Of a DNA stretch of 64,000 nucleotides, positions 29,667 to 50,023 are shown piece by piece. Numbering within the stretch: position 1 is the stretch's first letter; every line of letters begins with the position of its first letter. Under the pieces are notes generated by a model. It had not been told where the DNA came from and did not search any database. It saw only the letters and a list, made by a program, of their open reading frames with translations. A program made the position numbers and the translations under genes. Source of the DNA: a virus (Duplodnaviria; Caudoviricetes); the IMG/VR virus record IMGVR_UViG_3300029305_001452, positions 32,001-96,000 of that record. One strand, given 5' to 3'.

Positions 29667-30641
29667 ATGAACGGAAGACTTGAAAGAGAACTAAGAGCAG
29701 AAGAAAAAATGATGGCTAAATTAAACAGTCTGCCATCAATTTTTACAGAATTCTATAATACACTAGCCATAAATAAAACATATACCACATTAAATAATTA
29801 CATTAATCATAATATAGATTTTATGAACTATGTGACAAACAATAAGCCGAATAATAAGTTTTATAAAAATGTAAAAGCAGCAAAAATAAATGAGTATATG
29901 AGATCTATTCGTCGTAAAAATATAAACGGAACAACAGTAAGAATTGGTGATGATATCTGTGCTGCCAGATGGACATCTTTAAGGGCGTTTTTCCAGTTCT
30001 TAAAAGAGTTCGATTATGTTGAAGAAAATCCAATGGAAAAAACTAATAGACCTAAGATTAATACGGAGCATAAGGTAACATATTTAAAAAGAGAAGAAAT
30101 TAATATGGTTATCAATGAAATTAAAACAAATTCTACAGAATCTAAAAGAAGTAGAGATTTATGCTTGGTTTCTTTAGCTTTATCAACTGGATTGCGTGTG
30201 AGTGCGATAACTCAAATTAATATTGACGATATTGATTTCGTAAATCATACTATTAGTGTTGTAGAAAAAGGAAATAAGGTTAGAGCGATTAGTTTTGGTG
30301 ATAATTTGGCAGAACTAATCAAACAATGCATTGAGGATCGTGAAACGTATTTCCCTAATGCCGAAAGTAATGCCTTATTCTTATCACAATGGAAAAGACG
30401 TATGACTACACAGGCCGTTAGAGACTTAGTAGCTAAGTACACAAAGAATATCCATGGCAAACATATTACCCCACATAAGCTTCGTGCGTCTGCTGCAACT
30501 AATTTGGCTGCGTCTGGTGTGAGTATACAGGCGATCGCAAAAGTGTTGGGGCATGAAAACATCCAAACAACAAGAAGATATGTTGAAGTGCTTGACGAAG
30601 AGGCAGAAAAGGCAACTAATGTTCTTGATAATTTAATTTGA
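29667..30641 (+). CDS. tyrosine recombinase (XerC/D-like), catalytic residues intact
   Basis: TGLR, EKG, HKLR, LGH and TTRRY give R-K-H-R-H-Y. Confidence 0.92.
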   Translation: MNGRLERELRAEEKMMAKLNSLPSIFTEFYNTLAINKTYTTLNNYINHNIDFMNYVTNNKPNNKFYKNVKAAKINEYMRSIRRKNINGTTVRIGDDICAARWTSLRAFFQFLKEFDYVEENPMEKTNRPKINTEHKVTYLKREEINMVINEIKTNSTESKRSRDLCLVSLALSTGLRVSAITQINIDDIDFVNHTISVVEKGNKVRAISFGDNLAELIKQCIEDRETYFPNAESNALFLSQWKRRMTTQAVRDLVAKYTKNIHGKHITPHKLRASAATNLAASGVSIQAIAKVLGHENIQTTRRYVEVLDEEAEKATNVLDNLI

Positions 30642-30707: not shown

Positions 30708-31634
30708 GTGGATATTATGTATCAAAAAGAAAGAAAAGAGGAATTTATAAAAGACATAATGAGAAGTCGTGTAATCCAAAAAACTACACTATATGCTATA
30801 TTCAAAAAGACAGAACCATTTGAAGAAAAGTTTAAAAAAGATTGTTGTCAGTTTAACAAAGAAGAAGCTATGGAAATGTTTTACGGATTTAAATGTAAGA
30901 GCATCTATACACTTTTAAATAATAATACAATTATGAAAGCGTATAGTGCTTTTGCAGAATACTATCATGGAATTAAAGTGAAAAAAGTATATGAAAGTTT
31001 TACGATCTCCGATTTAAAACCATGTATAGCAGAAAGTAAAAACAAGTTAATCACAAGAGAGGATTTAGATGATATTAAAGCACAACTGCTAAATGTAGTA
31101 GATAGATGTATTGTCGAGTCTCTATGGGAAGGGATTTCAGGAACATCAATGAGAGATATTACTGGGCTTCAAGAGGGGCAGCTAGACAAAACGAGAAAAC
31201 AATTACATTTTGAAGATGGTCGTGTGCTAAACTTAACGGATGAGTTATATGAAGACTTGTTGGGTGCATTTAAACAAACTAAATATATTTGTTATGGAGA
31301 GACTCTAAGGGAAAAAACATTACTTGGGTATGGTCGCCTATATAAAGAAAGAGACAATGCGCTTGGTGAGCTTGATTCAGAAGATAGAAGATTTAGATGG
31401 ATATATAGAAAAATCCAAATATTTAGAGATCATGTCGGAATGCCGTGGTTAACAATGAAAATAATTCAAAATAGTGGATTTACGCACTATTTAAAAATTG
31501 GTATGGATAAAACAGGATTAGGGATAAAGGATTTCCTTAAGACAAAGGAAGGCAAAGAGTTAATGATCCGTTATGGATATACATCTCAATTCGCCGTAGA
31601 TAATGTAGTACACAAATATAAAGATTATGTATAG
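30708..31634 (+). CDS. MrpR/YopR-like master repressor (degenerate tyrosine-recombinase fold)
   Basis: FKKTEPFEEKFKKD..F, LWEGISG in place of TGxR, IQNSG; follows a recombinase as in SPbeta. Confidence 0.7.
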   Translation: MDIMYQKERKEEFIKDIMRSRVIQKTTLYAIFKKTEPFEEKFKKDCCQFNKEEAMEMFYGFKCKSIYTLLNNNTIMKAYSAFAEYYHGIKVKKVYESFTISDLKPCIAESKNKLITREDLDDIKAQLLNVVDRCIVESLWEGISGTSMRDITGLQEGQLDKTRKQLHFEDGRVLNLTDELYEDLLGAFKQTKYICYGETLREKTLLGYGRLYKERDNALGELDSEDRRFRWIYRKIQIFRDHVGMPWLTMKIIQNSGFTHYLKIGMDKTGLGIKDFLKTKEGKELMIRYGYTSQFAVDNVVHKYKDYV

Positions 31635-38047: not shown

Positions 38048-39694
38048 ATGCAGAAGAAATGGGTAGTTAAAAGCGATTGTCGTGGTATGACAACAAATGA
38101 AATTATAAATACAATTTTAGAGGATAGAGGAATAGAAAATATACATTCTCTACTATATCCAAATGAAGATTATCTTATTCCATTTGAAAAAATGAAGAAT
38201 ATAGATAGAGCAGCACAAATTATTACCAAAAATATAGAAAATAATGGTAGTTTTTTTGTGCATTTTGATACTGATACAGATGGAGTATCAGCAGGATCGA
38301 TTGCGGTTAGATGGTTAAAGAATCATACAGATAGAGTTTATTATGGAATTAACCAGGGCAAAGAACATGGTATTGCAAAGTTGGATTTATCCATATTGGA
38401 TGGCATAGATGTTTTATGGATTGTAGATTCTATTGAAACAAAAATGTTTCCATATGAAAAAGTGTTGGAAGTAGGGGTAAAACATATTATTATCACGGAT
38501 CATCACCTAGTTTCTAAGTCTATGCAAAAGCAAATGGAGAGAACTGGTGCAATTACTCTTGTAAGTTCAGCCGTAGACTATCCAAATCCTGCTCTGAGTG
38601 GTAGTGCAACAACATGGAAACTGTGTGCGTATATGGATTGGATAGAGCTAGATGATTTTAGCGATGACTTAGTTGACCTTGCTAGTACGGGTCTAATTGC
38701 AGATATGGTTGATATTAGTGCCGAATCACTAGAAAACAGATATATTTGTTATAAGGGATTTAATAATCAAGTCAATCCAGCACTTAAGAAAATTAATGGC
38801 TCTTATGAGTTTAATAGCCAAGCCGTTTCATTTGGTATAGCACCGTTGGTTAATGCAAGCAACCGTATGAATGAAAATGAAAAAGCGGTAGAACTGTTCC
38901 TATCTGAAGACTCCAAGGAAATCACTAGGCTTGTTAACGACCTAAAATCTTGTAAGGAATATCAGAATATAGAAATCGCAGATGTTATGCCAATTCTAGA
39001 AGAACAAGCAGAGTCACAAATGGATAAAAAGGTAATGTTTTTCTTTGTAGAAACCAATGCAGAAGTGAAAGGTTTAATTGGTAATAAGCTTCTTGAAAAG
39101 TACCAAAGACCAGTTATTATATTAGGAAACAGAATGGAAATTGATGAAGAGACCGGCGAGGTTGGAAAGCATGAATTCTTTGGCAGCGCGCGTGCTGTTG
39201 GTGTTAAGGATTTTAAGAAATATGTTGACGATACCGGACTTGTGTCTAGCGGTGGTCACGAGAATGCATTTGGTTTGTGGTTTGATGCCGAGGTCTTGGA
39301 AAACTTTCAAAATGCACTTGAAGAAGCACTTAAGGGTGTTGAGTTTGTACAAGAAACTATTATTGATATTCAGATTAATCAAGAGCAAATTACAGACGAT
39401 TTAATTAAACAAATAAAAATGTTAAATAGAATCTCTGGACAAGGTTGGCCTCAGATTTCTGTTATGGTAAGTGGCATTGAAGATTATGAAATTGGAGCTA
39501 TGAGTGGTGGTAAACACTTGAAGCTTATTGCCGATGGTGGTAAGACATTATTTATTAAATGGAATTTCAACGGAAATTGGGATCAGTTTAATGGTTCAAT
39601 TAGTGCTATTGGAAGTTTAGATAGTGGATGTTTTGGAAGAACTTATTATAGACAGTTAATTATGAATGATTGGAGAGTTGATGATGAGATATAA
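38048..39694 (+). CDS. recJ: RecJ-like ssDNA exonuclease (DHH)
   Basis: DTDTDG, TDHH, ADM, GSAR and GGH motifs. Confidence 0.9.
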   Translation: MQKKWVVKSDCRGMTTNEIINTILEDRGIENIHSLLYPNEDYLIPFEKMKNIDRAAQIITKNIENNGSFFVHFDTDTDGVSAGSIAVRWLKNHTDRVYYGINQGKEHGIAKLDLSILDGIDVLWIVDSIETKMFPYEKVLEVGVKHIIITDHHLVSKSMQKQMERTGAITLVSSAVDYPNPALSGSATTWKLCAYMDWIELDDFSDDLVDLASTGLIADMVDISAESLENRYICYKGFNNQVNPALKKINGSYEFNSQAVSFGIAPLVNASNRMNENEKAVELFLSEDSKEITRLVNDLKSCKEYQNIEIADVMPILEEQAESQMDKKVMFFFVETNAEVKGLIGNKLLEKYQRPVIILGNRMEIDEETGEVGKHEFFGSARAVGVKDFKKYVDDTGLVSSGGHENAFGLWFDAEVLENFQNALEEALKGVEFVQETIIDIQINQEQITDDLIKQIKMLNRISGQGWPQISVMVSGIEDYEIGAMSGGKHLKLIADGGKTLFIKWNFNGNWDQFNGSISAIGSLDSGCFGRTYYRQLIMNDWRVDDEI

Positions 39695-42600
39695 TAATTA
39701 TCATAAGCATACAATGTATTCAAATTTACGTACACTAGATTGTATTTCAAAGCCGATTGACTATATCAATCGTGCAAAGGAACTTGGACATACTACATAT
39801 TTTACAACCGAGCATGGATACCAAAGTAATATTTTTGAAGCACATACTTTATGTAATGAACATGGTATTAAGTGTATTTATGGTGTAGAAGCATATTATG
39901 TTGATGATATTAATGATAAAACTTCTAGAGCAATGTATCATATTATACTTATTGCTATGACTGAAAATGCAAGAAAAGAAATTAATAAAATAATGTCAAC
40001 GGCAAATACCGATGGATATTATTATAAGCCTAGAATTGATTTAAATATGCTTTTATCATTAACTCCGACAGATACTGTTGTTACTACTGCTTGTGTAGCA
40101 GGCAGAATGTTTAAGGACGGATGGGAAGAAAGTTTTTTGAAGCCTGTTAAGAATCATTTTAAGGACAACTTTTTCTTAGAAGTACAAGCACATGTAGATA
40201 ATAAACAGAAAGAACATAATAGAAAAATTATTGACGCTCATAGAAAGTATGGAGTTGCAATAATTCATGCAAATGACTCACATTATATTTATCCTAATGA
40301 TTCTAAAAATAGAGATCTGTTTCTAAAAGCAAAAGGGATTGTATATGAGGAAGAGGGTGGTTTTTTGCTAGATTACCCTGATTCCGATGAAATTTTTAGA
40401 AGATATGAAGAGCAAGGAATTCTAACTAAGGAAGAAGTAACAGAAGCATTAAATAATACTTTGATTTTTGATAATTCAGAGGGCATTCATATTGATAAAG
40501 AATTTAAAATTCCTAAAATCACAGATGGTGATAGTAATAAAGTTCTTAGAAATTTAATCAATGAAGCATGGGCAAAAGAAAGAAATAATGTCCCAAAGGA
40601 AAGATGGAAAGAATATATTCAGCAGATTAAATATGAATATAAAATCATAGAAGATTGCGGAATGGCTGACTATTTTATTTTGGACCATTATATCGTAAAG
40701 AAAGCAGTTAATGAATATGATGCAATTCTGACTAGAAGCGGAAGAGGTAGTGCAGTTTCATTCTATGTCAATAAGCTTCTAGGTTTAACAGAAGTAGATA
40801 GAATTAGTGCACCTATCACACTATATCCCACTAGATTTATGTCTGCAGAACGTATTCTTTCGTCTAGATCACTACCGGATATTGACCTTAACTGGGCTGA
40901 TGTTACACCTGTTATTCAAGCAAGTAAAGATATTCTTGGTGAAGACGGTATTTATTATATGATTGCATATAAACCTCTTCAAGAATCTTCTGCATTCAGA
41001 CTTTGGTGTAAGGCTAACGATATGCATATTTCTGAATATGATGAAATTGCAAAAAATTTAGAAGAATATGAGAATCATCCAGATTGGAAACAGCTAATTG
41101 AAGATAGTAAAGTTTTCCGTGGTGTAGTAGAAAGTGTTGCACCGTCTCCTTGTTCTTTCTTGCTTTCAAATGATAAGATTTCAGAGATTGTCGGATTGGT
41201 TAAAGTTGGCGATGAAATTTGCTGCTGTCTTGATGGTTACAATTGCGATGTATATAAATATCTAAAGAATGACTATCTAACTGTTACAGTTTATAGAATT
41301 ATTGATGAAGTATATAAGTTAATTGGCAGACCTATTGATGATATTCCAACACTTATTAAAAATTGTGATGATAAAGTATGGGATTTATATGCAAATGGTC
41401 TTACAACTACTATCAATCAGGCGGATTCTGACTTTGATAAGCAAATTCTAAAGAGATATAAACCAAGAAACTTAGCAGAACTTTCCGCATATGTGGCTGC
41501 AATTCGTCCCGGTTTTGCATCGTTGCTTAATAATTTTGTTGAAAGACAGCCTTATACAACAGGAGTTAAGGATCTTGATGATATACTAGAAGATTCTTTC
41601 CATTATCTAATTTATCAGGAATCCATCATGAAGTATCTTGTTTGGTTAGGTATTGAGGAAAAGGGAACTTATGATATTATTAAGAAGATTGCAAAAAAGA
41701 AATTCAAGGAAGAAGAACTTAAAACACTAAAGACACAGCTTCTGGATGGTTGGGTCAAGAATGTTGGTAAGGAAGATGGATTTAATGAAACTTGGCAGGT
41801 TGTTGAAGATGCCGCACATTATTCATTCAATGCATCACACAGCCTATCTGTTGCAATTGATAGTCTTTATGGAGCATATTTAAAGGCTCATTATCCTTTG
41901 GAATATTTTACTGTTGCATTATCTTTATATAGTGGTGATATGAATAGAACTTCAAATCTTATTTCAGAAATGAGTCAACTTGGAATTGAATTAAAACCAA
42001 TTAAATTCCGACATTCAAACGCTAATTATAATATTGAAAAGGAAACTAACAGTATTTATAAAGGCGTAGGAGCAGTAAAATATTGCAATGAAGAAGTTGG
42101 AAATAGTCTTTATGATCTTAAAGATTGTAAATTCGATTCATTCTTAGAATTGTTAGAAATGTTTCCAGGAAACTCTCGACAACGTGAAATCCTAATTAAA
42201 CTAGGCTATTTTGAGGAGTTTGGCGGCACTCTAAAGCTACTTAAGCTTTGCGACCTATATGATCTTTACCATGGAAAAAAGTTGCTTAAAAAGGACAAGA
42301 TTGGCTTACCACTGGATTTAGTTCAAAAGTATGCTGTTTCTGAAACTGCAAAGCAATTTAAGTTTGATAAAGAAAGTATGGATAATCTTCTTCGTGAATT
42401 CGCAAAAATGATACCAGACGGTGAAATTCCTCTTCGTACTAGATTGGAATCAGAGGCTGAATATCTTGGATATATTTCATATACAAATCCTAAGTTTGAA
42501 AATACTGGATTTGTACTTGGAGTAGATACAAAATACAGCCCAAAGATTACTGTATATCATTTGGACACTGGTGTTACTACGACGTACAAACTAAGTAAAG

Positions 42601-42755
42601 TTGCATATCAGAAAAATCCTTTTGATAAAGGACAAATTATTAAATTCTATTCGCAGGATAAGCCTAAGTCAAAGTTAGTTGATGGTGAGTGGGTAAAGAC
42701 TTCTGAAACAGAGAAATGGATTTCTAACTTTATTATTAAACAGACAGACTTGTAA
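39681..42755 (+). CDS. dnaE: DNA polymerase III alpha subunit (DnaE-type)
   Basis: PHP domain (HKHT, EHG, NDSHY), GRGSA, PDID and FNASH motifs. Confidence 0.93.
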   Translation: MMRYNNYHKHTMYSNLRTLDCISKPIDYINRAKELGHTTYFTTEHGYQSNIFEAHTLCNEHGIKCIYGVEAYYVDDINDKTSRAMYHIILIAMTENARKEINKIMSTANTDGYYYKPRIDLNMLLSLTPTDTVVTTACVAGRMFKDGWEESFLKPVKNHFKDNFFLEVQAHVDNKQKEHNRKIIDAHRKYGVAIIHANDSHYIYPNDSKNRDLFLKAKGIVYEEEGGFLLDYPDSDEIFRRYEEQGILTKEEVTEALNNTLIFDNSEGIHIDKEFKIPKITDGDSNKVLRNLINEAWAKERNNVPKERWKEYIQQIKYEYKIIEDCGMADYFILDHYIVKKAVNEYDAILTRSGRGSAVSFYVNKLLGLTEVDRISAPITLYPTRFMSAERILSSRSLPDIDLNWADVTPVIQASKDILGEDGIYYMIAYKPLQESSAFRLWCKANDMHISEYDEIAKNLEEYENHPDWKQLIEDSKVFRGVVESVAPSPCSFLLSNDKISEIVGLVKVGDEICCCLDGYNCDVYKYLKNDYLTVTVYRIIDEVYKLIGRPIDDIPTLIKNCDDKVWDLYANGLTTTINQADSDFDKQILKRYKPRNLAELSAYVAAIRPGFASLLNNFVERQPYTTGVKDLDDILEDSFHYLIYQESIMKYLVWLGIEEKGTYDIIKKIAKKKFKEEELKTLKTQLLDGWVKNVGKEDGFNETWQVVEDAAHYSFNASHSLSVAIDSLYGAYLKAHYPLEYFTVALSLYSGDMNRTSNLISEMSQLGIELKPIKFRHSNANYNIEKETNSIYKGVGAVKYCNEEVGNSLYDLKDCKFDSFLELLEMFPGNSRQREILIKLGYFEEFGGTLKLLKLCDLYDLYHGKKLLKKDKIGLPLDLVQKYAVSETAKQFKFDKESMDNLLREFAKMIPDGEIPLRTRLESEAEYLGYISYTNPKFENTGFVLGVDTKYSPKITVYHLDTGVTTTYKLSKVAYQKNPFDKGQIIKFYSQDKPKSKLVDGEWVKTSETEKWISNFIIKQTDL

Positions 42756-42766
42756 AAAATAACTAG

Positions 42767-42799
42767 TTAGGCAGAGTGATATTTGGTCATTCTGCCTAA
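42767..42799 (+). terminator. hairpin after dnaE
   Basis: TTAGGCAGAGTGA/TCATTCTGCCTAA. Confidence 0.6.
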
Positions 42800-42862
42800 T
42801 TGACATTTGGAAAATATTTGTTATAATGACAGTACAAAATTAATAACAAAGGGGTTATTTAT

Positions 42863-43222
42863 ATGGAACTAATGGAAGGTTTGACTTTGTTGAGTACTAG
42901 TACTACAAAAAATGATAGTATATTTTTTACAGTAGTACTATGTGTTATGTGTGCAATACTATTTATATTAGGCGTTATTATGTTTGTTGGTACAGTTAAA
43001 GTGTTTCAATGTTATGACAGTGTTAATGGCGTTTTCGGAATCTTTTTTACTGTTATAGCATTTATTGTTTCAATTGTTGGTTTCAATGTTGCTTTTACTC
43101 CATCGGAAACAACATATAAGGTCATTATTGATGAATCAGTTTCAATGGTAGAATTTAATGAGCGATATGAAATTCTTGACCAGGATGGATTAATTTATGA
43201 GATTGTTGAAAAGGAAAAGTAA
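42863..43222 (+). CDS. membrane protein
   Basis: two transmembrane segments. Confidence 0.7.
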   Translation: MELMEGLTLLSTSTTKNDSIFFTVVLCVMCAILFILGVIMFVGTVKVFQCYDSVNGVFGIFFTVIAFIVSIVGFNVAFTPSETTYKVIIDESVSMVEFNERYEILDQDGLIYEIVEKEK

Positions 43223-43461
43223 CGGAATATAAATATAAGAAAGGTACATAAATTATGAAACTTAATAAAGGACAACTTATTATTGATGTATCTGGTATAG
43301 ATCAGAATAGTTATGAAGCATTGGTATCTTTTGCAGAAGACAATAAACATCTTCCGATTGGCAAGCTTGTAAGTGAATGGATTGATTATGTTGCGTGGGA
43401 TGTTGCAGCTTGGTATATCGGTGACGACGTGTAATAAATTGTAGGAGGTTGAAACTGTATT

Positions 43462-43719
43462 ATGAATAGTTTTACAAAAGAACCGTTGCATATTGATGAC
43501 GTTGTGGTTTATCTAAAGAATGAAAGAACTGGTAGCAGCACCATTAGAAAGTGTAAATTTATTGGACATATTACTGGTTTTACTGATACCAAAGTTAATA
43601 TTAATAGACTATCTCCGCCAGATAAGTTTGTACATCCAGATGAAATCCAAAGTCTTGGAACCGATACTGTTTGTCCAGATGATGTTGTGAATATTATAAT
43701 CAGTAAATATGGCGAATAA
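43462..43719 (+). CDS. hypothetical protein
   Basis: AGGAGG RBS; stop codon lies in a cassette site. Confidence 0.7.
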   Translation: MNSFTKEPLHIDDVVVYLKNERTGSSTIRKCKFIGHITGFTDTKVNINRLSPPDKFVHPDEIQSLGTDTVCPDDVVNIIISKYGE

Positions 43720-43736
43720 AAATAAAATTTTCAGAG

Positions 43737-44048
43737 GTGATGGTTATGTATTTTATTACTGTTTTTGACAAAGTTGAACCAAGTGATGTATTTTACGCCG
43801 AATTTGGCGATCGTAGAACTTGGGGATATTATCCAGAGTATGAAATGGCAATGAACGCTCTTCACGAAAATCGGACAGATATGCACGAAGGTTGCTATGA
43901 GTATGCCGTAATTGAAAACATTGGACCCGGCATTTGTGCTTATGCAGGAGAAAGACAATGGTTCAAATGGGATAAAGAGAAGCGTGGATATTTTGAGATC
44001 GAAGAACCGGAATGTGTAAAACATTTTGTGAATTTTGCAATTGGGTAA
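43737..44048 (+). CDS. hypothetical phage protein
   Basis: flanked by cassette sites. Confidence 0.7.
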   Translation: MMVMYFITVFDKVEPSDVFYAEFGDRRTWGYYPEYEMAMNALHENRTDMHEGCYEYAVIENIGPGICAYAGERQWFKWDKEKRGYFEIEEPECVKHFVNFAIG

Positions 44049-44076
44049 AGTAAAATTTTAAACGGAGGATTTAAAA

Positions 44077-44514
44077 ATGGATAAAGTAATGGAATTGCTA
44101 GAGCAGTTGGCGAACAGTTTAGGCGTAGCGGTCGAATATTTGTGGACAACATTGGTAAAGCAACAGTATGTAGAAGGTGTAACAAATCTTACAATGGCTG
44201 CTATTGGAATTATTGCAACAATTGCACTGTTGATTTGCGTTCCTAGAGCTACAAAGTTCTTCATCAATCAACATAAAGAGTTGGCAGAAGACAGAAGAAA
44301 AAATGGAACTGGATGGCATGGGAGTTATAGTGTGTCTAGTATGAGAGAAGATTTTTGTAATTCTATGAAGTTTGTAGTTCCAATTGTTGGTTTTGTGGTT
44401 ATTTTTGTTATTATTATTTGCGTTGTAAGCAATGTTAAATTTGGAATCCAGCAGTTACTTAACCCAGATTACTTTGCACTTAAAGAAGTGTTAGACACAA
44501 TTAGTGGTTCGTAA
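44077..44514 (+). CDS. membrane protein
   Basis: LGVAVEYLW..LVKQ motif; two TM segments; NPDYFAL. Confidence 0.75.
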   Translation: MDKVMELLEQLANSLGVAVEYLWTTLVKQQYVEGVTNLTMAAIGIIATIALLICVPRATKFFINQHKELAEDRRKNGTGWHGSYSVSSMREDFCNSMKFVVPIVGFVVIFVIIICVVSNVKFGIQQLLNPDYFALKEVLDTISGS

Positions 44515-44551
44515 AGTAACGATTAAAAGTAAAGTTTTAAGTGGTGATTAT

Positions 44552-44848
44552 ATGAGCTATTATTGTACAAAAGAAATGAAAGCTTGCGAGTTTGCAAATG
44601 TATACGGGCATTGCAATGTAACAGCTTGTACAAAAATCAATAGAAATAATATGCAGTTTCTAGACACTTCTATATCTTACAACAAAACTTTTGAAGAAGA
44701 ACTAGAAGAAAAAAGAAAAGTTGCGATTGCAGAGGGATATTTGGAAGGTTTGGGTGTAAAAATTAAAACGGATATGTATGGATATTATAGAAATACATGG
44801 GATATTCTACTGGATTTAGGAGAATATCTTTCTAAGAATAACACATAA
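44552..44848 (+). CDS. hypothetical protein
   Basis: ATG after a cassette site and GGTG RBS. Confidence 0.65.
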   Translation: MSYYCTKEMKACEFANVYGHCNVTACTKINRNNMQFLDTSISYNKTFEEELEEKRKVAIAEGYLEGLGVKIKTDMYGYYRNTWDILLDLGEYLSKNNT

Positions 44849-44866
44849 AAGCAGAGTTTTAAGGGG

Positions 44867-45160
44867 TTGTATGATATGAAGAATAAATTAATTGTATTAT
44901 TAACAATATTTATTTTGATATTTTCATTGGTTGGATGTGCAACAACATATCAAGAAGCAACTGGTAAAAATGATGAAGAAGATTTTTGTAATGGATACTT
45001 CACAGTTATTACTAAGTGGGATGATGATGCTGGGACATATAGAATTGTGTATGCAAATGATACAAAAGTAAAGTATATAACAATTAGTAGTGGATATAAA
45101 TTTGGTATTAGTCCACTCTATAATACAGATGGAACATTACAAATTTATTATGGCGAATAA
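44867..45160 (+). CDS. predicted lipoprotein
   Basis: signal peptide with LVGC lipobox; TKVKY...PLYNTDG motif. Confidence 0.7.
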   Translation: MYDMKNKLIVLLTIFILIFSLVGCATTYQEATGKNDEEDFCNGYFTVITKWDDDAGTYRIVYANDTKVKYITISSGYKFGISPLYNTDGTLQIYYGE

Positions 45161-45192
45161 GCATATAAAAGAAGATTTTTAAGAGGTAACTT

Positions 45193-45567
45193 ATGAGTGT
45201 TCGTATTGATGGAAGATATTATTATTCTCCGTGTGATGAATGTAAGACTGAATGGTGCTTTTCGTGCACGCTGTCAAAGTATAAAGAAGATTTACGAAAA
45301 GAACAAGAAAGAAGAGCCTTTGCTGAATCTCGTATTGAAAGAGAACTAGAACCTCGCCTTAAAGCAGAATATAGTGCATATGATCGTTATGTTTTAACTG
45401 ATCGTTCTTTAGAATGGTGTGATACGTTTGATTGCCGTGTAAACGAATTGGTTGAAATGTTTGAGGAAGATTTTGATTGGTCTCAGTTCGATTTTGACGG
45501 TGATGATATTACCAGTAAAGTCGCAAAACTAATATATGAAACAGTAAAGGATGAAAATAATGATTAA
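45193..45567 (+). CDS. hypothetical protein
   Basis: AGAGGT RBS after a cassette site. Confidence 0.7.
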   Translation: MSVRIDGRYYYSPCDECKTEWCFSCTLSKYKEDLRKEQERRAFAESRIERELEPRLKAEYSAYDRYVLTDRSLEWCDTFDCRVNELVEMFEEDFDWSQFDFDGDDITSKVAKLIYETVKDENND

Positions 45568-45883
45568 TTCAATTATAGAACATATCTACGAGGCATATAG
45601 AGAGGCTATACGCCTTGGCATCGAGGTCAATACAGTAGCCATTAATGATAGGTTGTATTATACTAAGTTGTCCAGTGATTGTGGTGATATTCCTATGGTA
45701 TGTGGTCTAAAATGTGTATATACCAACGAACTCCCAGATGATACTATGTTTGCGGTATTTAAGGCTGATCGTACAGTACGAACTAAAGATGAAATGATTG
45801 CAGACTTGCAAGATAGAAACAGAGAGCTTGTAAATGAGCTTAATAGAGTTTATGAAATTATCGGAAATATGATAGATGGGTGA
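45551..45883 (+). CDS. hypothetical protein
   Basis: coupled ORF. Confidence 0.65.
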   Translation: MKIMINSIIEHIYEAYREAIRLGIEVNTVAINDRLYYTKLSSDCGDIPMVCGLKCVYTNELPDDTMFAVFKADRTVRTKDEMIADLQDRNRELVNELNRVYEIIGNMIDG

Positions 45884-46212
45884 TATATATGGCACGGTGC
45901 TATCAAAATTGTAAACATAATTGGTGTAATGTGGTTTGTAGAAAGTACGATGAATCCATATTAACTTCTCGCCATCCTTTACATTACGGTTTACTTCTTC
46001 ATCCACTTGAATATTTGTCCATATATTATGATTATAGAAAGAAAGATATTCAACACCTAATTGACATTGTAGATAAATTTTCAGATGATGATGCTTCAAA
46101 AAACATTGTCAAGAAGTATAAACAAAATGGCTATATTTCTTTTAAGCAAAGAAAGTTATTGATATATAGGTTATTAAATTGTTGTTATGAGGGCAAAGAA
46201 CATGGATGGTAA
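45880..46212 (+). CDS. hypothetical protein
   Basis: coupled ORF. Confidence 0.6.
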   Translation: MIYMARCYQNCKHNWCNVVCRKYDESILTSRHPLHYGLLLHPLEYLSIYYDYRKKDIQHLIDIVDKFSDDDASKNIVKKYKQNGYISFKQRKLLIYRLLNCCYEGKEHGW

Positions 46213-46326
46213 GATTAATAAATTAATTGAAATTATTGAGTTTATTGTTGATGTTGATCATGGAATCAAACAAGAACATGCCAATATGATTTATAAAATG
46301 CTAAATGAATTAAAGGAGTATGACTA

Positions 46327-46722
46327 ATGGGACTTGACAATGGCTTAGTATGTTATAACATTAAAAGAGAAGATATCCCATTTTGGGTAAAACTACCGTT
46401 GGATTGGAATGAAAATTTTAATAATTTTAAATTAATATACTTTCGTAAACATTGGGGTATTCGTGGCGAAATCTTAGCAAAGTTGCATTGTGCAGATAAT
46501 AATGATAGTCGTACGCCTATTGATGCCGAAGATATTATTCCTATTGTAAAAATCCTTATGAAATATCTAGATAAGGAATATTACGAATATAATGCAGATT
46601 CTATTTGGGAATATAATGAAGCATATGATAATATTCAGCAGAGTATTATTAACTTAATGTGGCTAAAAATACATATGGAATCAAATCCTAATGTAAAGTG
46701 CTATTTTTACGATTCTTGGTGA
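46327..46722 (+). CDS. phage protein (MGLD...YFRK...YDSW family)
   Basis: terminal motifs common in phage proteins; AAGGAG RBS. Confidence 0.75.
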   Translation: MGLDNGLVCYNIKREDIPFWVKLPLDWNENFNNFKLIYFRKHWGIRGEILAKLHCADNNDSRTPIDAEDIIPIVKILMKYLDKEYYEYNADSIWEYNEAYDNIQQSIINLMWLKIHMESNPNVKCYFYDSW

Positions 46723-46731
46723 GGTGATTAT

Positions 46732-46977
46732 ATGAATCGGCACATTTTTGAGGTTAATGCAGTTCAACGTCTCGGAGATCAAATTGGATATGGACATCTT
46801 ATGTGGTTGGCCTCTGCTTTATGGCGTAGAAAGCTTGTAAAGGACTGGGGAGAAGGTCACGAAAAGGGAGCGTTCTTGCCAACGGTTAGTGTTTTGTTAA
46901 ATGAAGAGGGATTGGATATTTTTCAGCAGCAAATTGGTATTTATGATGAAATTGTTGCAGATGTGTTAGATAAGTGA
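46732..46977 (+). CDS. hypothetical protein
   Basis: GAGGTG RBS. Confidence 0.7.
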   Translation: MNRHIFEVNAVQRLGDQIGYGHLMWLASALWRRKLVKDWGEGHEKGAFLPTVSVLLNEEGLDIFQQQIGIYDEIVADVLDK

Positions 46978-46994
46978 AGTTTTAAGAGGTAAAT

Positions 46995-47306
46995 ATGTTT
47001 ATTAGCAAAGATGAATATTATGATCTTCTTGATTGTAAAGAAATTAATACAAAGCTAGAAGAAGAAATCAAAAGATTAGAATATATGTTAAACACAAGAG
47101 ATAAGAGTTGTAAGGTTGGTCCATGGTGTAAAAATTGTGGTCATTGGGTTGAAGATGAATCTGTAATTACAAGTAGCATTATTAATGAATATACCTTAGA
47201 AGACGCATATTATGGAGTACCGATTCCAAAGAAAATTGGTGGTAAAGTAGGATATTGTAATAAATATATTCATACTTTATGCCCTGATTTTACATTAAAA
47301 GTTTAG
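46995..47306 (+). CDS. hypothetical protein
   Basis: flanked by cassette-like sites. Confidence 0.7.
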   Translation: MFISKDEYYDLLDCKEINTKLEEEIKRLEYMLNTRDKSCKVGPWCKNCGHWVEDESVITSSIINEYTLEDAYYGVPIPKKIGGKVGYCNKYIHTLCPDFTLKV

Positions 47307-47314
47307 TTTTAGAG

Positions 47315-47863
47315 GTGAAAATAGTGGCTGATGTTAACGTAGAAATGTTAAAGGAGAAGCTTTATAAGGTTGCTAGTGCATTGTTTCGTATTAGTGAAAC
47401 TTGTGTAGAAGTGAGTAAACAGCACATAAGTGAAAAAGATGCTTTAAATAAGATCCGTGGATATTTAAATGATTCCGATATGTGGTCTAAGTTGAAAGTA
47501 GATAAACTAATTGGCGAGTGTATGGAGCCACAGATTTATAATACTTTTGAAGAGTATCAAGATGAATGGTTAAAAAAATCTTTGGGTAAATGGGTTGGAC
47601 TAGAACCTCTGGAAATTAATTACCCAGATTGTTGTGATGAATGTTCAAACAACCCTAAGAACGGTGGTTCTGGAATTTGTAATTGCACATTGCCGTATAT
47701 GCAGAACCCTACTATGTATAGCAACGGAGATTCTTGTATGGCAAATAATATTAACGGCAATGTTTATTTTGTAAAAGATTTAGATACTCTGAAAGAACAT
47801 AAAGCAAGTTCTGATAGAATTGCAGAAGCCGTTGAGAGAACTAAGAAATATGAGAGGAAATAA
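47315..47863 (+). CDS. hypothetical protein
   Basis: CSNNPKNGGSGICNCTL motif. Confidence 0.7.
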   Translation: MKIVADVNVEMLKEKLYKVASALFRISETCVEVSKQHISEKDALNKIRGYLNDSDMWSKLKVDKLIGECMEPQIYNTFEEYQDEWLKKSLGKWVGLEPLEINYPDCCDECSNNPKNGGSGICNCTLPYMQNPTMYSNGDSCMANNINGNVYFVKDLDTLKEHKASSDRIAEAVERTKKYERK

Positions 47864-47865
47864 CT

Positions 47866-48120
47866 ATGATTAACACTTGTGTATATTGTGGAGACATTAT
47901 TCCAAAAGGAATGGAAACATGTCCTATATGCTTTAATCGTGGAGTAGTATGTCCTAAGTGTGGCGATACATTGGAAGTTATGGATACTTCTAATTGTATC
48001 ATCGATGATAAACTTACTTTATGTACCCTATATCATTGTAATAGCTGCCATTTAGATTGGGAACGAGAAGCTAATTATATTGGCGAGCCTGTAAAGTTTA
48101 CTAGAAAGTTTTGGGGATAA
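47866..48120 (+). CDS. Zn-ribbon protein
   Basis: four CxxC motifs. Confidence 0.7.
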   Translation: MINTCVYCGDIIPKGMETCPICFNRGVVCPKCGDTLEVMDTSNCIIDDKLTLCTLYHCNSCHLDWEREANYIGEPVKFTRKFWG

Positions 48121-48132
48121 GGAGGTGTAGGT

Positions 48133-48918
48133 ATGCCTAAGTTATTTTGTGTATCTGATATACACGGATTTTATGACGAAACGAAAACGGCACTTGATAA
48201 TGCCGGATTTGACCCAAATAATGAAGATCATTGGCTTATTGTGTGTGGTGATGTATGGGATCGTGGTAGTCAGCCAGTAGAAATTATGAGATATTTACAG
48301 AGTTTGCCTAGAAAGGTACTTGTAAAGGGTAATCACGAAAGTTTGTTGCAAGATTTGTGTGATAGAGGATATCCAGGCTCTCATGACTATTCTAACGGCA
48401 CTTTTGATACAGTATGTGAGTTTGGTAATGCAGCAGAGGGCAATAGCTTTGACGAGTGTTGTCTAATTGCATATCAAAGAACCAAGAATTTTATCGATGG
48501 TATGGTAAATTATTTTGAAACCAAGAATTATATCTTTGTACATGGTTGGATTCCGGTGGTAAGTAAGGACGGGCTACCTATGTATTATAGGAATAACAGA
48601 AAGTTTGAGTTCTATCCTAGTTGGCGTTATGCTCATGCTGGTGAGTGGGATCAGGCTAGATGGTTAAATGGCATGGATATGGCTAGAAAAGGCTTTGTAG
48701 AGCCCGGGAAGACTATTGTGTGTGGGCACTGGCATTGTAGCTATGGACATATGCTGGATTCTATTAAGACAGATAATTGGATTGAGGAGTTTGGAGAAAC
48801 TGCTATTTGGGAGCCATATTATGCCGATGGCGTGATTGCTATTGACAGATGCACTGCTTATACTGGAAGGGTCAATGTTCTTGTTTTAGAAGACGATTTT
48901 CTTGAAAATACCCCTTGA
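48133..48918 (+). CDS. calcineurin-like metallophosphoesterase
   Basis: SDIHG, GDVWDRG, GNHE, VHG and GHWH motifs. Confidence 0.9.
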   Translation: MPKLFCVSDIHGFYDETKTALDNAGFDPNNEDHWLIVCGDVWDRGSQPVEIMRYLQSLPRKVLVKGNHESLLQDLCDRGYPGSHDYSNGTFDTVCEFGNAAEGNSFDECCLIAYQRTKNFIDGMVNYFETKNYIFVHGWIPVVSKDGLPMYYRNNRKFEFYPSWRYAHAGEWDQARWLNGMDMARKGFVEPGKTIVCGHWHCSYGHMLDSIKTDNWIEEFGETAIWEPYYADGVIAIDRCTAYTGRVNVLVLEDDFLENTP

Positions 48919-48990
48919 CAAAATAGAAATAATATGCTATAATACCCACAGTTCAAAAAGAACACAACAAAATTAATTAAGGAGTTAATT

Positions 48991-49317
48991 ATGAGTAGGA
49001 ACTATTTCGCAATCGAGTGTAATCAGCAGTATTGGGAACATGTAGTACTCAAGGACAAAGATGGCAACGTTAAGTTCGAGGATTATCTGAATAAGACTTA
49101 TAATGAAATGAAGTCCAGTGAGGATCTTGAAGAGTTTGTAGTTGCTATTATGAATGCTGCAAATGGCGATGAAAACAACAATGCTATTATTACCCTTGTT
49201 GGCGAAGATGGTGTTTTTATTTGGGGAATCATCATTGGCCCCGGAGAAGAAGATAGCGTTAGATATGTACTTGTAGATTGGAAAAAAGATGGCAAGAATT
49301 ATCGATATGAATCTTGA
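48991..49317 (+). CDS. hypothetical protein
   Basis: own promoter at 48915-48943; AAGGAG RBS. Confidence 0.7.
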   Translation: MSRNYFAIECNQQYWEHVVLKDKDGNVKFEDYLNKTYNEMKSSEDLEEFVVAIMNAANGDENNNAIITLVGEDGVFIWGIIIGPGEEDSVRYVLVDWKKDGKNYRYES

Positions 49318-49351
49318 GGGGCTTGACAAATTGAAAAAAGTATGATATAAT

Positions 49352-49729
49352 ATGCACATAATAAACGATACAAAATTAATGAAAGGAACAAAAAAGATGA
49401 TTAAGTATTTCGTGAATAAGGATGAGCGGAAGGTCGTTGCTGTACTAGAAAACACCAGATGGGATGCTTTTAATAAGATCTGTAAGATGACCAGAGACAC
49501 TGACTTCTGTGTTGTACCTAAGGACAAGTACATGATGCACAATGCATATCGAGCCGTAGTTACATGTGATGAGAGAGATGAGTTCAATGAAGAGGTCGGC
49601 AAGAGATATGCAAGAGAACGTGTACTGGAGCATTATTATGCAGCGCTTGATAAGCGTGTAGATGAGTTTAGAGCTTCTGTTTTGGTGATGAATGGCAAGG
49701 TTTTTGAGACACCTGAAATTGTTGAATAA
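49352..49729 (+). CDS. hypothetical phage protein (true start probably MIKYF)
   Basis: promoter at 49323-49351; C...DEFNEEVGK..A motif. Confidence 0.7.
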   Translation: MHIINDTKLMKGTKKMIKYFVNKDERKVVAVLENTRWDAFNKICKMTRDTDFCVVPKDKYMMHNAYRAVVTCDERDEFNEEVGKRYARERVLEHYYAALDKRVDEFRASVLVMNGKVFETPEIVE

Positions 49730-49734
49730 GGTAC

Positions 49735-49763
49735 TTGACAAATCAAAAGTTTTGTGATATAAT
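49735..49763 (+). promoter_or_regulatory. sigma-A promoter of the tRNA cluster
   Basis: TTGACA-N17-TATAAT; 17-bp motif at 49767. Confidence 0.8.
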
Positions 49764-49848
49764 CCTAACAGTTCAAAATTAATGGAAAGCAACATTGTTT
49801 GAGGGTTGCTGAAGTCGGCAAGTGAGGTTCTGTGTTGACAAATAATTT

Positions 49849-49943
49849 CCACGTATAGCTCAATTGGTAGAGCGACGGATTTATGCTCCGTTTGGCACCA
49901 GATTAGTGCGAGGTTCTGGGTTCGACTCCTAGTACGTGGACCA
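49849..49943 (+). tRNA. tRNA-Ile(UAU) with long variable arm
   Basis: CCACGTA/TACGTGG acceptor; ACGGA-TTTATGC-TCCGT anticodon arm; TTCGA; CCA. Confidence 0.8.
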
Positions 49944-49946
49944 AAT

Positions 49947-50023
49947 GGTTCCATAGTTCAGTTGGTTAGAACCCCCGGCTCATAACCGGGTTGTCCTCTG
50001 TTCGAGTCAGAGTGGAACCACCA
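49947..50023 (+). tRNA. tRNA(CAU), Ile2- or Met-type
   Basis: cloverleaf; CCCGG-CTCATAA-CCGGG; CCA. Confidence 0.85.

Follow-up and report, generated by a model that had tools for sequence, protein, structure and literature searches.

Recurrent 22-nt gene junctions in uncultured Clostridia phages, which resemble the fixed joints of a rack holding exchangeable genes

Short conserved elements recurring in the intergenic spaces of variable, ORFan-rich regions have been described for T4-type phages under the name of promoter early stem-loops (PeSLs). According to the available text of the two reports, these elements flank single genes which have been inserted, deleted or replaced, each of them consists of a sigma-70 promoter and a stable G/C-rich stem-loop terminator, mini-circles were demonstrated, and a function as homologous exchange points also serving expression was proposed (Arbiol et al. 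2010, PMC2839356; Comeau et al. 2014, PMC4122927). For Cluster K mycobacteriophages, the available text of Pope et al. (2011, PMC3203893) describes start-associated sequences (SAS) with the 13-bp consensus GGGATAGGAGCCC, which harbour a Shine-Dalgarno core and are placed 3-8 nt before the start codon, as well as an extended form (ESAS) made up of 17-bp inverted repeats with variable spacers of 4-13 bp; the function of SAS is unknown (PMC3203893). Here, we describe a short palindromic element found at gene junctions within a stretch of 64,000 nucleotides (bases 32001-96000 of the 139,972-bp virus record IMGVR_UViG_3300029305_001452; G+C content 35.7%), hereafter referred to as the window, where seven copies are located in a cluster of small genes downstream of dnaE. 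Each copy contains a six-base centre which is specific for its position and keeps its order across related phages while the genes in between change. Among the described systems, PeSLs are closest to this element in behaviour and SAS/ESAS are closest in anatomy.

The strict signal comprises 22 bases, namely TAAAA, six free bases and TTTTAAGAGGT. An alignment of all gene starts reveals that the palindrome is the left portion of a 22-nt unit of the form TAAAA-N6-TTTTAAG(A/G/T)GGT, whose right end constitutes a Shine-Dalgarno core (GAGGT) at normal distance to the start. The half-sites are separated by a fixed spacing of 11 bp from centre to centre, the start codon follows 10-14 nt past TTTTA and the unit ends 5-9 nt before the next ATG. 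Over five phage records, TAAAA is positioned exactly 6 nt before TTTTAAGDGG at 68 of the 76 gene starts which possess the latter sequence. In all copies the unit is co-oriented with its gene; in the present genome, the copies of one cluster point leftward and lie on the minus strand, those of two others point rightward and lie on the plus strand. The unit is confined to one gene class in variable regions and to non-structural genes. All seven sites which the original prediction had assigned to the cluster are present at their coordinates, four being canonical, one showing a single-base change and two being degenerate (Table 1). The first five occupy the successive junctions of 43462-45567 and separate genes of separate families, as had likewise been claimed. 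Within the window, TAAAA-N5-7-TTTTA is observed 13 times compared to 1.64 occurrences expected, a number reached in none of 100 shuffles.

The six-base centres are not repeated within any genome, while their order is preserved between genomes. Records G002 and G004, both of which stem from 3300012983, have 17 centres in common where composition predicts about 1.0, and 17 of 17 are collinear (more than 10 in 0 of 2000 permutations). With the present genome, G002 and G004 have five centres each in common and G001 four, composition predicting 0.1-0.35. The run GTAAAG-GCAGAG-GAAGAT recurs with unchanged order in G004, L122, L136 and L139, partially in G001/L128, G002, L084 and L096, and with one transposition in L134. 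Together with its continuation, which in the other records reads (CAAGAA or TTCTTG-TTCTCA-TAGGAT-CAATAT)-TAAGGT-GAAAGG-GAAGGA-...-TCGAGA-AGAATA, this order is shared by about ten records, two of which are contigs of Clostridia metagenome-assembled genomes (MAGs). When junctions with the same centre are compared between records (180 pairs), identity has fallen to background level by position -5 on the left side and by +23 on the right side, meaning that only the 22-mer is common to them. Moreover, centres are conserved in an all-or-none manner, as next to the 17 identical ones G002 and G004 exhibit two one-base variants versus ten expected by chance. Within genomes, five pairs of centres are one base apart, compared to 22 expected by composition and 11.4 expected from the observed repertoire (P 0.02). 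For records which are not independent of each other, these numbers are suggestive of centres being kept apart within a genome like a set of labels.

In contrast to the centres, the genes following them change from record to record. The GTAAAG slot holds genes of 98, 220, 63, 70, 64, 52, 136, 126 and 81 amino acids, the GCAGAG slot genes of 94, 62, 118, 93, 70, 101 and 63, and the GAAGAT slot genes of 124, 89, 53, 170, 68, 72, 63, 83 and 56. Genes sharing a slot are unrelated (best pairwise E 0.09), with seven distinct and mutually unrelated genes being present in the GAAGAT slot over nine records. In addition, genes are found behind different centres, as applies to 12 out of 16 homologous gene pairs with an upstream junction on both members. 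The original prediction had proposed to look for homologues which keep the sites but change their neighbours, and such homologues exist: the family of 44876-45160, with homologues in G004 and L101, is flanked by the element in three records, each time by a different pair of centres and with different neighbours, and the G001 and L078 copies of 43746-44048 have other neighbours on both sides. Fixed synteny without the sites was not found. Nucleotide homology between homologues in different contexts ends at most about 33 nt before the ATG and at most about 43 nt after the stop codon; it stops short of the neighbouring gene, with one syntenic exception (family F1 in G001 versus L084). Assembly chimeras can be considered an unlikely source of the swapped genes, as we infer from the fact that the final k-mers with which common assemblers work exceed a shared word of 22 nt in length and that the pattern recurs across independent samples and MAGs.

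The phage from which the window originates is a large, SPbeta-like phage of Clostridia (record completeness 87%). Its DnaE (39666-42755) shares 57% identity with the DnaE of Clostridium phage c-st and 53% with that of phiCD211, both of which are SPbeta relatives. No copy of the element is present in c-st, phiCD211 or SPbeta. A scan of IMG/VR with the exact pattern identified more than 100 uncultured phage contigs, most of them with single chance matches, while arrays of 3-23 copies occur in about ten records of low-G+C phage contigs. These include the two Clostridia MAG contigs, CALEJF010000029.1 and JAZNOH010000089.1, which possess full arrays. Strict sites amount to 23 in G002, 20 in G004, 10 in G003, 4 in G001 and 3 in G005, compared to none for the reversed pattern used as a control on such records (3-23 strict sites each). 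Some of the array-bearing phages are distant from the present one, their DnaE being only about 29-40% identical to its own. The element is real, strongly non-random and common to a family of uncultured Clostridia phages. An origin by chance, that is from A/T-rich intergenic DNA combined with an ordinary ribosome-binding site, would agree with a genome of 36% G+C, with centres which share the background composition and with GAGGT being a normal Shine-Dalgarno core. It is, however, refuted by the surplus of sites over expectation, the rigid spacing, the empty reversed-pattern control and the collinearity of the centres, and its probability is therefore practically nil.

Table 1. Junctions, genes and promoter of the cluster (positions within the window)
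Feature	Position	Strand	Remarks
Sigma-A-type promoter, TTGACA-N16-TATAAT with TG, perfect, followed by 16-nt promoter-associated motif	42800..42850	+	operon start
Junction 1, TAAAA-ATAAAA-TTTTC-AGAGGT	43717..43738	+	right arm one base off; arm TAA is stop of 43462-43719; next ATG 43746
100-aa gene	43746..44048	+	anchor; 79-82% identity to G001/L078 copies
Junction 2, degenerate, GTAAA-GTAAAA-TTTTA-AACGGAGG	44045..44068	+	centre one base from that of junction 3
145-aa membrane protein	44077..44514	+	phrog_1486 match; L136 homologue follows centre TCAAAG
Junction 3, canonical, TAAAA-GTAAAG-TTTTA	44524..44545	+	upstream stop at 44514
98-aa Cys-rich ORFan in GTAAAG slot	44552..44848	+	unrelated to eight slot-mates in other records
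Junction 4, canonical, TAAAA-GCAGAG-TTTTA	44846..44867	+	arm TAA is stop codon
94-aa putative lipoprotein	44876..45160	+	signal ends LVGC; weak DUF6440 match
Junction 5, canonical, TAAAA-GAAGAT-TTTTA	45166..45187	+	stop 6 nt upstream (45160)
124-aa ORFan in GAAGAT slot	45193..45567	+	
Five small genes, overlapping/tightly coupled, without element	45551..46977	+	46327-46722 is anchor common to G001
Junction 6, degenerate left arm, GATAA-GTGAAG-TTTTA-AGAGGT	46969..46990	+	TGA stop within centre (46977)
Junction 7, TAAAA-GTTTAG-TTTTA-GAGGT	47296..47316	+	TAG stop of 46995-47306 within centre; next start GTG 47324
Metallophosphatase (PF00149)	48133..48918	+	conserved anchor closing operon; next perfect promoter 48915-48943

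The genes from 42863 to 48918 are located on the plus strand throughout, between perfect TTGACA-N16/17-TATAAT promoters at 42800 and 48915, and a scan of 42000-50000 found no terminator-like site on the plus strand. Taken together, the two flanking promoters and the lack of a plus-strand terminator define the cluster as the interior of a single operon with some 17 small genes. Functional matches in the operon are limited to three, namely the phrog_1486 membrane protein, the putative lipoprotein and the metallophosphatase. There is no paralogy among the flanked genes, every one of which belongs to a family of its own. The unrelated genes 43462-43719 and 44876-45160 are identical in their last 12 nt (43708-43719 and 45149-45160), which encode Tyr-Gly-Glu-stop just before the junction. 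Searched by megablast against 50,697 deposited phage records, the cluster region gave no near match, and a blastn search of the same records with 44505-45205 yielded noise only. This blastn query matched 134 Streptococcus phage records, mainly of S. thermophilus hosts, and very short matches with an identity of at least 99% were obtained for 80 records in total.

Some observations on individual centres should be mentioned separately. The membrane protein gene 44077-44514 is flanked by the centres GTAAAA (44045-44068) and GTAAAG (44524-44545), which are one base apart, and in G001 a lone GTAAAG junction is found directly 3' of the homologue of 43746-44048; this single case resembles the insertion of one gene accompanied by duplication of the junction. 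As a general pattern, junction duplication upon insertion was discarded, for adjacent near-duplicate centres are not enriched (10 versus 6.6, p 0.13). The centres CAAGAA (G004/L139) and TTCTTG (G002/G001/L136), which take the same place in the array, following the GAAGAT junction, are reverse complements of each other and look as if a 16-bp palindrome had been flipped. Flipping of centres as a general pattern was likewise discarded, reverse-complement pairs not being enriched (5 versus 2.7, p 0.11).

At the level of expression, the TAA of the left arm is a true stop codon in 44 of 77 and in 99 of 218 sites; otherwise the stop precedes the arm by a few bases or falls within the centre, as in junctions 3, 5, 6 and 7 of Table 1. 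Since it terminates translation in about half of the copies only, the arm is not simply a stop codon, and the notion that a stop codon defines it was dropped. The original prediction had placed an ACACA prefix in front of some sites. The real feature beneath it is an enrichment of C at position -4 (38% of 218 sites compared to a background of 11.7%, p 5e-23), which is independent of the stop position and weaker than the feature claimed. This C(-4) mirrors G(+19) and hence represents a weak extension of the dyad. Purine-rich cores, which had been thought to provide directionality, could not be substantiated as a property of the element, as the purine excess corresponds to the C-poor composition of the sense strand and the flanks are alike in this respect; the direction of the element results from its asymmetric Shine-Dalgarno side. 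Calculated RNA folding energies of the seven junctions range from -1.6 to -5 kcal/mol with z-scores of -0.7 to +0.3, which is no better than for shuffles. The absence of a stable fold leaves the junction region open for ribosomes. A terminator or a stable RNA hairpin was accordingly rejected, given such shuffle-like folds and the empty plus-strand terminator scan, and no Rfam family matches 42700-49000 at E<=1.

A short, A/T-rich and strictly conserved motif placed just 5' of each gene and overlapping the previous stop might also be taken for a promoter of phage-specific transcription, recognised by a YonO-type RNA polymerase or by an unrecognised sigma factor and giving each small gene a start of its own. 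T4 late promoters do overlap the preceding stop codon. A sigma-70 promoter at the junctions was rejected, as they are devoid of a -35/-10 pattern and the region does not exceed shuffles in promoter-like matches (44 versus 40). Neither a Sigma70_r2 nor a Sigma70_r4 domain, as would indicate a phage sigma factor, was found in the genome, and the cluster already lies behind a perfect promoter of the host type. Furthermore, the late genes of SPbeta form a single operon which YonO transcribes from one start site (PMC5467207). Altogether we regard phage-specific promoters as very improbable.

The same anatomy would be compatible with a pure regulatory operator, whose dyad is bound as DNA or mRNA by a phage or host protein co-controlling the small early genes, for instance a DNA-binding dimer or a factor of translational shut-off of the RegA/RegB kind, the swapping of genes being a passive by-product of the conserved borders. 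Invariant arms with half-sites 11 bp apart from centre to centre at fixed spacing, the additional symmetric pair C(-4)/G(+19), the overlap with the Shine-Dalgarno sequence and the limitation to one gene class in variable regions all speak for such an operator. So does its retention in phages as distant as those mentioned above, and the start-associated sequences of Cluster K mycobacteriophages provide a precedent. This explanation, however, does not account for the finding that the centres, although a factor binding the arms would have no use for their sequence, match the arms in conservation and are ordered on top of that, and no candidate factor was found. We consider it rather unlikely.

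An apparently intact tyrosine recombinase is encoded by 29667-30641 (PF00589, E 7.5e-40), directly upstream of an MrpR-like gene. The element might also be read as a core site used by a dedicated site-specific recombinase, with 5-bp inverted arms and a 6-bp overlap, exchange taking place between identical centres only. A perfect dyad around a 6-bp centre is indeed reminiscent of the core sites of tyrosine recombinases (6-8 bp overlap), a requirement for overlap identity would yield centres which are unique per genome, all-or-none and mutually dissimilar, and identity stops exactly at the element. Homologues of the recombinase which are 40-43% identical are present in the site-bearing records G001, G005 and G010. 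Homologues of 27-36% identity are, however, also present in the site-free phages c-st, phiCD211 and SPbeta, while G004, with its 20 sites and a completeness of 78%, gives merely a weak partial match of 25%. No specific co-occurrence of this recombinase with the sites is apparent in these records. Arms of 5 bp are also far shorter than those of known tyrosine-recombinase core sites, which measure 11-13 bp, and the fusion of the right arm to the ribosome-binding site in strict gene orientation would be unneeded for pure recombination. We therefore judge a dedicated recombinase site to be improbable.

The gene 30717-31634 downstream of the recombinase encodes a 305-aa protein with the N-terminal core-binding domain of MrpR (PF22822). 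The MrpR of SPbeta, itself a dead tyrosine recombinase, represses early promoters via the 15-bp SPBRE (PMC10516654). In the present genome a second motif of 16 nt (core ACAAAAT[T/G]AAT) occurs in 31 co-oriented copies, among them 42834-42850 and 48967-48983, and sits just after, or between the hexamers of, the perfect sigma-A-type promoters at 42800, 48915, 49323 and 49735. It is probably the SPBRE counterpart of this phage, in which case the cluster would belong to a repressor-controlled early regulon.

The interpretation we favour, to which we concede an even chance, is that the element serves as a standard stop/ribosome-loading junction and doubles as an in-register crossover point for swaps of single genes. 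In the mRNA, it would close or follow the upstream reading frame within the polycistronic early operon and offer an unstructured A/U-rich stretch together with the fixed Shine-Dalgarno core GAGGT, from which the following start codon is 5-9 nt away. Provided with its own approach and Shine-Dalgarno sequence, any gene behind the element would be translated on its own. In the DNA, 22 identical bp including a genome-unique centre would act as crossover points for related co-infecting phages or resident prophages, presumably by general recombination at short homology. As a full-length match exists only between junctions with the same centre, exchange would stay in register, and single genes would be swapped with the rest of the array neither deleted nor duplicated. 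Such a double role would explain the orientation of the element and its fusion with the ribosome-binding site, its restriction to variable regions and the abrupt fall of identity at either end of the unit. Likewise, it would explain the conserved order and the all-or-none nature of the centres, which selection might preserve as an 'address'.

Several findings speak against this interpretation. A length of 22 bp is close to the minimum with which known systems of homologous recombination work, no recombination protein is linked to the sites, and an ERF-type annealing protein is missing from this 87% complete genome, other families not having been searched. The genes of family F2, which lack the element, show breakpoints at the gene borders as well; as clean borders thus arise without it, the element is not needed for mosaicism and is not a proven crossover site. 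For every slot examined, the gene differs between almost all records, and the pool of donors must accordingly be very large, while the exchange of alleles within a common pool would predict more common alleles than are seen. Genes moving between different centres would, in addition, require crossovers within the short arms or another route. Finally, the statistics on the over-dispersion of centres are moderately significant and were obtained on records of common ancestry.

To all appearances, the signals resemble joints which stay in place in a rack while the genes between them can be exchanged. It is conceivable, and we put it forward with corresponding reserve, that the phages actually maintain such a rack of individually addressed joints, with unique, mutually dissimilar centres in fixed order allowing in-register exchange of single genes, an architecture which would run on either general recombination or a site-specific enzyme and would be distinct from those of integrons and PeSLs. 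If this is true, a single accessory gene could be exchanged among relatives with the rest of the genome undisturbed. How single genes are cleanly swapped in mosaic phage genomes is an old question, in which Botstein's linker idea has reportedly competed with random illegitimate recombination and subsequent selection. Here, linkers are directly visible, short, strict and numerous, with a position-specific centre which identifies the slot across phages, and since slots are recognisable by their centres, the turnover of genes per slot becomes countable in metagenomes. Given a host, exchange could be tested by crosses, for which the Clostridia MAG contigs carrying a full array provide a lead. The contents of the slots are almost exclusively ORFans. 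Early, repressor-controlled regions of phage genomes are the usual home of host-takeover and anti-defence genes. With ORFan slots placed under an early promoter which is probably controlled by a repressor, the array could consequently serve as an index for mining such genes, and the junction could be used as a standard part for the insertion of genes into these phages.

Within the literature searched, no paper reports the motif in a phage context or describes such junctions. Many short oriented sites in short intergenic spaces are also characteristic of the stoperators of mycobacteriophage L5 and of the SPBRE/MrpR system of SPbeta, to which the MrpR-like protein of the present phage adds a further likeness. 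SPBRE, however, resides in promoter regions (PMC10516654). This place is held here by the 16-nt motif, whereas the junction element is located inside operons and fused to the ribosome-binding site.

An integron-like reading of the cassettes named in the original prediction finds a counterpart in arrays of promoterless single genes which have one orientation, are each bounded by an imperfect palindrome and vary in content among relatives. This reading is nevertheless not supported. The attC sites of integrons are folded sites of 57-141 bp with R''-L''/L'-R' arms which travel with the cassette, and IntI recombines them next to attI and the promoter Pc. In contrast, the unit described here measures 22 nt, has 5-bp arms, adopts no stable fold and thus no structure of the attC type, and no recombinase is tied to it. 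Decisively, attC moves with its cassette while the centre found here stays with its array position when the genes change. Beside the array, there is no integron integrase platform, the sole Phage_integrase match being 29667-30641 located 13 kb upstream, for which the IntI-specific insertion was not examined, and instead of a Pc the array possesses a promoter of its own at 42800.

As regards anatomy, the element shares with SAS, as far as the available text on the latter goes, a motif which contains a Shine-Dalgarno sequence near the start, has one orientation, is restricted to the non-structural region and precedes genes of different families. Further common traits are an upstream stop which is sometimes situated within the motif and an extended form consisting of an inverted repeat around a variable spacer. 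The resemblance is one in kind only. Its sequence is unrelated to GGGATAGGAGCCC, the hosts are others, and arms of 5 bp enclose a strict 6-nt centre; ordered, lineage-conserved spacers and the swapping of genes between fixed sites are not described in the available text on SAS. With PeSLs, again within the available text, the element has in common that it occurs in hyperplastic regions and flanks ORFans which are inserted, deleted or replaced between relatives. It differs from them in its size of 22 nt, in lacking both a sigma-70 promoter and a stable stem-loop, and in operating at the level of stop and start inside an operon; unique centres in a fixed order are not described for PeSLs in that text. 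Conserved junctions mediating modular shuffling are of a known kind; the surprising trait here is the position-specific centres, which keep their order as the genes turn over.

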